DNA of 64,000 nucleotides from a plasmid, in NCBI RefSeq assembly GCF_058153355.1, contig NZ_JBLWLY010000002.1; one strand, written 5' to 3'. This document shows, in pieces, positions 59,201 through 62,200 of the stretch. The position numbers are program-made. Positions within the stretch are counted from its first letter, which is position 1. Each line of letters opens with the position of its first letter.

Positions 59201-62200
59201 GCTCCATTGTTGATTATAGACAGGTTATCTCCTGTGATAGCATTACCACCGTAGCCATCATAACCATAACCGTAAGCAGCACCTCCGTTGCCTCCAGCGA
59301 ACGTGCCCTTATTGATTACAGAGAGGCTGCTTCCTGTGATGGCATCACCTCCATTACCGCCATCACCCTCACCATAATTGTTACCTCCATTACCACCGGA
59401 AATAGTCCCTTTGTTGATTATGGGTAGATTGACTCCTGTGACGGCATCACCTCCATTCCCCCCATCACTATCACTATAACTATCGCCACCATGTCCACCT
59501 GAAATAATTTCTCCATTTATTATAAACAGATTGTCTCCTGTAACAGCCTCACCACCATCACCGTTATGGTCAGCACCGCTACCGCCGCTACCACCAAGAA
59601 TCATGCCTTGATTGATTATAGACAAGTCAGATCCGGTAATAGAGTCACCACCATTACCGCCACAACTATTACCATCATTATTATCACCAGCACCACCATG
59701 ACCTGCGCTAATCATAATATCAGAGTTAATCCGTAGCTTAGTTCTAGATGCATGAGAGGGGTTGGAAGAAGTTATATACCACGCATCCATTCCATCTTCA
59801 CCAGCTCCCAAGGGAGAAAGTCCATCAACAGGTGTTAATAATTTTTCATAATTGTCCTCTGAAAAATGAAGTTCTTGAGTACCCGAAAGAGGAATAGCAA
59901 AAGCTATTGGCCCCCCGAGCAACAGGGATGCACCAACAACAAAAGGAGAAAAAGACAATTTGCATGTTTTTTCCTTTACCGTAGGTAATTCTCCGGCCCC
60001 CCCCTGTGAACATTGGGTCATATTACAAAAAAATTTGTGAATTTGATTCATGCACTATATTATCAGTAAGTGGTTGATAAACCCCTAAAAAGATTCCGTT
60101 TTATCCGGAATAAAGGGACGATATATGCAAAAACATATTAAACAAAGCCTCAACCAAAACATGAGAGCTGTGTTATATATCAATGCAACGGGAGAAATTT
60201 ACCTGTGTCTTGCTTTGAAAAAAAGAGGGGGAAAGCTATATGTTCGATAATAAATTAATAATTTTACTATGATAGTCTGCTTCAGACCGCAACTTTTCAG
60301 TTCCTTCTGTACGCTTGCCCAAAGTTTAACCACTTTGTTTTTCTATACACCCAATGGTTCTATCTGCCCCTTGATGTTAATCCCCAAAGCCAATAACATG
60401 AATGTATTCATATCACAACTTTCCTACCAGACTCTCCAATGCAATAACTGCATAATTGTTTTTAGTGGAAATGTATCGTTTTCTTAAAGAGAAGAATAAT
60501 ATTCCATTTTATTATGTTCCCAATTTAATTATATTAATATATATTGGCATTAATAGGAAAATACATCAGGAGAAATCAAATGCAGACATCAAACATAACT
60601 AACCATGAAAGAAATGACTCATCATGGATGTCAACGGTCAAATCAACTACAGAAGTAAGTTGGAATAAATTGAGTTTTTGTGACGTTTTACTGAAAATAA
60701 TAACTTTCGGCATATATTCTCCACACGAAACTCTAGCCGAAAAATATAGCGAAAAAAAACTAATGGATAGTTTCTCACCATCACTATCACAAGATAAAAT
60801 GGACGGAGAGTTTGCCCACGCAAACATAGATGGCATTTCAATACGGCTATGCCTTAACAAAGGCATATGTTCGGTTTTTTATCTTGATGGAGATAAAATA
60901 CAATCCACTCAACTTTCATCAAAAGAATATAATAACTTGTTAAGTTCACTCCCCCCCAAACAATTCAACTTAGGAAAAGTACATACTATTACAGCTCCGG
61001 TATCAGGGAATTTTAAAACTCACAAGCCTGCACCAGAAGTTATTGAAACAGCCATTAATTGCTGTACATCGATAATACCAAACGATGATTACTTCCCCGT
61101 TAAAGACACTGATTTTAATAGTGTTTGGCATGATATTTACAGAGATATTCGAGCATCTGACAGCAATAGTACAAAAATATATTTCAACAATATTGAAATA
61201 CCACTAAAATTAATTGCAGATCTAATTAATGAGTTAGGAATTAATGAATTCATTGATAGCAAAAAAGAGCTTCAAATGCTAAGTTACAACCAAGTAAATA
61301 AAATAATCAATTCAAACTTCCCCCAACAAGACCTATGTTTTCAAACAGAAAAACTTTTGTTTACTTCACTCTTTCAAGACCCTGCATTTATATCTGCACT
61401 AACATCTGCATTCTGGCAATCTCTTCACATCACGTCTTCCTCTGTGGAACACATATATGCCCAAATTATGTCCGAAAACATAGAAAACAGGCTTAATTTC
61501 ATGCCTGAACAACGAGTTATTAACAATTGTGGACATATTATAAAAATCAACGCAGTTGTCCCTAAAAATGACACTGCAATCTCTGCCTCTGGGGGGAGGG
61601 CTTACGAAGTTAGCTCATCAATATTACCATCGCACATAACATGTAATGGTGTTGGTATTAATAAAATAGAAACAAGCTATCACGTTCATGCTGGAACACT
61701 TCCAAGCAGTGAAGGGCTTCGCAATGCTATCCCTCCAGAAAGTCGTCAAGTATCATTTGCCATCATATCTCCTGATGTTTAAGCCAATATTATATTGGCT
61801 GCCAGACTGTAAAAAAACGTTCTTCAGAACAGCTCTATAAACTATTAAACCAAAGCTAAAAGGATGGGGACCAATAGAATCTCAGCCCATCCTTTTTATA
61901 TCATTATGAACCGCCCCGGAAATCCTGGAGACTAAACTCCCTGAGAAAGAGGTAAACAGGATGACTAAAAATACACGTTTTTCCCCTGAAGTCCGTCAAC
62001 GGGCAGTTCGTATGGTTCTGGAAAGTCAGGGCGAATATGACTCACAATGGGCAGCAATTTGTTCCATTGCCCCAAAGATTGGCTGTATACCGGAGACTCT
62101 GCGTGTCTGGGTACGCCAGCATGAGCGGGATACCGGGGGCGGTGAGGTGGGCTCACCACCGCTGAACGTCAGCGTCTGAAAGAGCCGGAACGTGAAAATC

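Follow-up and report, generated by a model that had tools for sequence, protein, structure and literature searches.

The closest described counterpart of the site reported here is the MxiE box of virA on the plasmid pWR100/pWR501 of the S. flexneri reference strain M90T (Mavris 2002; Bongrand 2012). It is the same 17-mer, including the deviation T11C, and it is separated from the virA start codon by the same gap of 90 nt. The gene is listed by Bongrand et al. 2012 (PMC3299695) among 13 plasmid genes that MxiE and IpgC control. [quoted passage not shown]

The other MxiE boxes, namely those of ipaH9.8, ipaH7.8, ospE1/2, ospC1, ospB, ospF, and ipaH4.5, carry the same nine invariant positions. Their distance to the -10 hexamer downstream is likewise 19-22 bp, and the genes that they control code for type III effectors. 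The virA box differs from them in that its run of seven T residues is interrupted by C11. In addition, the virA promoter belongs to a weaker group, consisting of virA, ospC1, and ospE2 (PMC3299695), and it is overlapped by the transcription unit of RnaG.

The same logic is found in the InvF/SicA system of Salmonella and the BsaN/BicA system of Burkholderia. In each case an AraC-family activator is combined with a chaperone of translocators, which secretion sets free. The MxiE box is probably similar to the binding sites of these two systems. At the protein level MxiE matches a model of InvF, and IpgC matches a model of SicA. The parallel to chaperone-dependent activation of the AraC type has been named in a preprint (10.1101/2022.04.20.488988).

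The virA box and its setting on the plasmid

The window, that is, the whole stretch of 64,000 nt that was analysed, belongs to an invasion plasmid of Shigella/EIEC. The annotated genes mapped in it are ipaJ, virB, ipaA, ipaD, ipaC, ipaB, other ipa-mxi-spa genes, ipgC, mxiE, spa15, spa40, icsA, and virA. The other large open reading frames that were tested are those of RepA, of insertion-sequence transposases, and of a group II intron reverse transcriptase. Among these mapped genes and tested reading frames, virA is the sole known member of the MxiE regulon, which fits the presence of a single box. The features that bear on the regulation of virA are collected in Table 1.

Table 1. Features of the virA regulatory region and of its regulators, in window coordinates.
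Feature	Position	Strand	Description
ipgC (chaperone, MxiE co-activator)	21415-21882	-	protein 100% identical to that of M90T
mxiE (AraC-family activator)	31629-32383	+	5' limit is a putative start; annotated ORF 31751-32383; T9 slippage run 31760-31768
icsA (virG)	56743-60051	-	divergent neighbour; +1 at 60189
RnaG antisense RNA unit	60070-60522	+	crosses the box and the -10 hexamer; 3' end 60521-60523
Predicted RNA hairpin, 3' part of RnaG	60465-60507	+	surrounds the box; a U-rich tract comes next; z = -1.38
MxiE box of the virA promoter	60473-60489	+	GTATCGTTTTCTTAAAG; at -49 to -33
-10 hexamer TATTAT	60510-60515	+	20 bp downstream of the box; at -12 to -7
MxiE-dependent virA +1	60522	+	placed by geometry from values in PMC3299695
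virA 5' UTR	60522-60579	+	58 nt, AT-rich; Shine-Dalgarno AGGAG at 60568-60572
virA	60580-61782	+	400 aa, intact; EspG/VirA family effector; Pfam EspG 1.2e-158

When the icsA-virA intergenic region together with virA was used as a query, virA-annotated regions on 117 Shigella/EIEC plasmids matched with 99.5-99.7% nucleotide identity. The same query also matched eight E. coli genomes, always on plasmids. At the protein level, VirA differs from that of M90T by four amino acids (residues 36, 56, 173, and 368). A search of NCBIfam returned no family match for it, whereas Pfam gave one. The naming of the protein varies: database records call it an alpha-tubulin-specific protease, and reviews describe it as a Rab1 GTPase-activating protein. 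Directly 3' of the virA stop codon lies a perfect 9-bp palindrome, AGCCAATAT-T-ATATTGGCT (61783-61801). It was rejected as a canonical intrinsic terminator, since it is followed on the plus strand by a run of A and not by a run of T.

The icsA-virA segment (43846-61782) is flanked by insertion sequences. In comparison with M90T pWR501 and E. coli p899091_1, its orientation with respect to the spa genes is reversed. The group II intron reverse transcriptase (51767-55476) appears to be broken in two, with its N-terminal part at 51767-52633 and its C-terminal part at 55015-55476, and an IS66 transposase gene (52637-54208, minus strand) lies between them.

Compared with the consensus GTATCGTTTTTTTANAG, the virA box has a single mismatch, T11C. 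All nine invariant positions are present (G1, G6, T7-10, T12, A14, and A16), and position 15 is A, not G. The use of the nine conserved positions, and of a position 15 other than G, as marks of a MxiE box is taken from PMC3299695. An assignment to this class calls for no more than three differences from the consensus, for nine of nine invariant positions, and for suitable spacing to the -10 hexamer and the start, and each of these is found here. The gene downstream belongs to the regulon and encodes a type III substrate, and both mxiE and ipgC are intact in the same genome. The 17-mer is thus read, with a probability of about 95%, as the canonical MxiE box that acts in cis at the virA promoter on an invasion plasmid of Shigella/EIEC.

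A preliminary description, made by eye, had placed the motif about 90 nt 5' of the virA ATG, had counted 16 of 17 consensus positions as matching, and had assigned virA to the genes that MxiE and IpgC activate. The measured gap is exactly 90 nt (ATG at 60580), the count holds if N is taken as a match, and the assignment agrees with the published regulon of Bongrand et al. 2012. No second copy of the motif had been noticed. A scan of both strands of the window bears this out, as the pattern G....GTTTT.T.A.A occurs once, at the virA box.

The same result is obtained with the consensus itself, for which the virA box is the only match with at most one mismatch on either strand of the window. If up to three mismatches are allowed, two extra matches appear, at 38472 (+) and 61807 (-), and each of them retains eight of the nine invariant positions. 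The former (38472-38488, three mismatches) was rejected. It lies within the coding sequence of spa47 (spaL), is without the invariant T7, and is also found in pWR501. The latter, AGAACGTTTTTTTACAG (61807-61823), is situated just beyond the virA stop codon on the opposite strand and is kept in M90T. It was rejected as well: it matches at 14 of 17 positions with G1 missing, and a -10-like hexamer follows only 12 nt downstream. The nearest antisense start mapped in M90T (equivalent to 61761) is 45 nt away from it, compared with the canonical 32.

As a positive control, the M90T plasmid pWR501 was rebuilt and scanned identically. The scan returned nine boxes with nine of nine invariant positions, all of them upstream of known regulon genes (ospB, ospF, ospE1, ospE2, ospC1, virA, ipaH4.5, ipaH7.8, and ipaH9.8). 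The remaining matches were the same two decoys as in the window, with eight of nine positions. On these two plasmids, the pattern of nine invariant positions tells real boxes and decoys apart without error.

The 5' edge of the virA box is adjoined by GTGGAAAT (60465-60472, plus strand), which we take to fit the consensus of VirB sites. This degenerate pattern has 114 occurrences across the window, and the VirB-type reading of this copy is therefore treated as chance. Upstream of virB, in the region 15231-16069 (minus strand), three of four weak sites that resemble MxiE boxes are present verbatim as in a preprint, which judged such sites to be non-canonical (10.1101/2022.04.20.488988).

Promoter geometry and the start of virA transcription

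The MxiE-dependent virA promoter has no -35 hexamer, and the box occupies its place. The distance from the box to the -10 hexamer is that of ipaH9.8 and ospC1 on pWR501. The virA start was mapped in M90T, and its position on the present plasmid is derived from statements in Bongrand 2012 combined with arithmetic. According to that paper (PMC3299695, citing Mavris 2002), the mRNA 5' ends of ospC1, virA, and ipaH9.8 each have a MxiE box 33 bp upstream of them. A motif far from the mapped virA start would have spoken against the preliminary description, and the published distance is a short one. The cloned virA UTR ends at +46 and is stated to be the UTR minus its last 12 nt (PMC3299695). The full UTR is therefore 58 nt long, which puts +1 at 60522. 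The same arithmetic, when applied to distances on pWR501, reproduces the published values for ospB (+45), ospC1 (+218), and ipaH9.8 (+85).

Several properties of this promoter have been described in PMC3299695. Fragments of approximately 67 bp (-57 to +11) drive lacZ in an ipaB mutant and do so weakly in the wild type, and the virA fragment with these limits (68 bp) is a promoter regulated by secretion activity. The virA box with its T11C is as functional as uninterrupted boxes, and it is functional when moved into the ipaH9.8 promoter. The virA UTR, for its part, raised the expression of lacZ. The predicted fold of the UTR is not significant (z = 0.82) and so provides no structural explanation for the enhancing effect.

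The -10 hexamer, the UTR, and the Shine-Dalgarno sequence are identical in M90T and in the window. Over the fragment from -57 to +11 the two agree at 67 of 68 positions, the exception being the spacer base at -22 (60500), which is T here and C in M90T. All five plasmids that were aligned have C at this place, and the T of the window is a private change. Over 60440-60600, no PLSDB record has the same sequence as the window. At the matching distance from the box, a T is found in several stronger MxiE promoters. The secretion-regulated activity known from M90T, which has the identical box and a nearly identical promoter, may carry over to the present plasmid, with the private T as a point against it.

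In 115 of the 117 plasmids, the 42-bp stretch that surrounds the box is 100% identical. One record, CP046677.1 (EIEC p152661_pINV), has a degenerate box, GCAATGTTTTTCTTAAAG, with an insertion of one base. It was rejected as a natural variant, since its virA contains a premature stop and its icsA shows 51 gaps; its divergence is likely due to poor assembly or gene decay.

In M90T grown in broth, dRNA-seq placed virA starts at the equivalents of 60556, 60577, and 60583, and none at 60522. This does not count as evidence against the MxiE-dependent start, because the secretion apparatus is idle under such conditions, so that the promoter is expected to be off, and because starts were called very permissively, with 835 of them on the plasmid. 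The starts do bear on another reading, in which the box is too far from the real start and virA is transcribed from a downstream promoter of the sigma-70 type, starting at about 60553-60556. The box would then lie at about -80 to -64. A promoter scan detects a second candidate promoter at 60517-60556 (+), in which TTCCCA (60517-60522) is followed after 17 nt by TATATT (60540-60545). Furthermore, the virA start cited in Giangrossi 2010 (PMC2879508) is at -364 of icsA. This corresponds to 60553 in the window, a position that fits the pair of hexamers. However, the dRNA-seq start at 60556 comes from cultures of the kind just described, and the regulated 68-bp fragment ends at +11 (60532) and does not contain TATATT. 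Since the two promoters can coexist, a basal downstream promoter and an induced upstream one may be the simplest reading, and a virA gene that depends on the downstream promoter instead of the box is very unlikely. Less still can be said for the view that the match arose by chance, the intergenic DNA being AT-rich, and plays no part in regulation, an explanation that may practically be set aside. The intergenic region does have a GC content of 33%, compared with 42% for the window, and matches with three mismatches do arise randomly (1.19 expected). Yet just 0.02 matches per window are expected at one mismatch or fewer (2 in 100 dinucleotide shuffles), and a random match would also have to combine nine of nine essential positions with correct spacing to both the -10 hexamer and virA. 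Finally, experimental data exist for the identical sequence (PMC3299695).

Activation by MxiE and IpgC

The annotated MxiE reading frame is 100% identical to that of M90T. The region 5' of it, with the T9 run at which transcriptional slippage occurs, is likewise identical and intact. As read from the sequence, the gene probably starts at the GTG at 31629.

The established model begins with an idle apparatus, in which OspD1 holds MxiE while IpaB and IpaC hold IpgC. At the onset of secretion these partners leave the cell, and MxiE and IpgC are freed. The two then act via the box to turn the virA promoter on.

MxiE and IpgC may bind directly to the virA box; in the literature, direct binding of MxiE or of MxiE-IpgC is reported as never having been demonstrated for any box. 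Recruitment of RNA polymerase is assumed because the box sits at the -35 position. According to a later review, MxiE can be dispensed with if H-NS is defective, and this points to counter-silencing. H-NS sites have been reported at -220 to -350 relative to the icsA +1, equivalent to 60409-60539 in the window, and this span covers the box. Activation of virA may proceed either by recruitment of RNA polymerase or by relief of silencing by H-NS.

RnaG and icsA around the box

The published coordinates of the icsA region can be transferred to the window. With the aid of primer G501, the icsA81/4 mutation (+81 to +84) of Giangrossi 2010 (PMC2879508) is located at 60109-60106, which gives the icsA +1. 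The icsA start of M90T dRNA-seq, at 158894, is equivalent to the same base. The starts of RnaG, an RNA antisense to icsA, at +120 and +118 of that gene correspond to the G residues 60070 and 60072, and the Rfam model of RnaG (RF02550) matches 60070-60189 (+) with 158.5 bits. The 3' end of RnaG was mapped between C-332 and A-334 of icsA (PMC2879508). These positions are C60521, A60522, and A60523 in the window, and the bases agree at all published RnaG positions.

It follows from this conversion that RnaG transcription crosses both the box and the -10 hexamer. It stops at the virA start that depends on MxiE, with the 3' end of RnaG within 1 nt of the position derived above. Giangrossi 2010 (PMC2879508), who used the virA start at -364, described the overlap of RnaG with the virA promoter and discussed promoter interference in general terms. 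The exact overlap between the box and RnaG is the sole part that is not spelled out in the cited papers.

In the predicted hairpin, the box forms the 5' arm and the loop, and C11 of the box pairs with its G17, so that the virA-specific T11C contributes a C-G pair. The predicted energy is -10.9 kcal/mol with C11 and -9.0 kcal/mol with U11, a cost of 1.9 kcal/mol. Among the nine box regions of pWR501, that of virA has the most stable predicted fold.

From these predictions one may entertain, as a rather unlikely addition to the MxiE box, a dual function in which the same sequence would act as a MxiE box in DNA and as a terminator hairpin of RnaG in RNA, with T11C kept for the strength of the hairpin. 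The passage of RnaG across the box, its end at 60521-60523, and the U-rich tract that follows the hairpin (60465-60507) would be consistent with such a role, as would the greater stability conferred by C11 and the rank among the pWR501 regions. On the other hand, the z-score of the fold is just -1.38, and the 3' end of the RNA lies 14-16 nt beyond the stem, a longer distance than intrinsic terminators usually show. Between plasmids the sequence is moreover invariant and offers nothing from which covariation could be read. The dual function is compatible with the explanation as a MxiE box. Quite improbable, too, is a role of the box in the opposite direction, by which it would raise the transcription of the divergent icsA. 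The activity of the icsA promoter did rise in the presence of MxiE plus IpgC, and the authors of that preprint suggested the box in the icsA-virA intergenic region as a possible cause (10.1101/2022.04.20.488988). Nevertheless, the box is located 284-300 bp upstream of the icsA +1 (60189) and has the opposite orientation.

Read as the MxiE box of virA, the site holds nothing new in any respect open to checking here. Its definition dates from 2002 and its dissection from 2012, and since the present copy is identical, it has little significance as a finding. It is of use as a check, in that a genuine 17-bp regulatory site was picked out by eye in the preliminary description and was correctly interpreted there. 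If the dual function were true, the transcription of RnaG could block the promoter of virA or continue into the gene itself. The attenuation of icsA would then be coupled to the induction of virA, and T11C would be a selected feature of the box and not the outcome of neutral drift.
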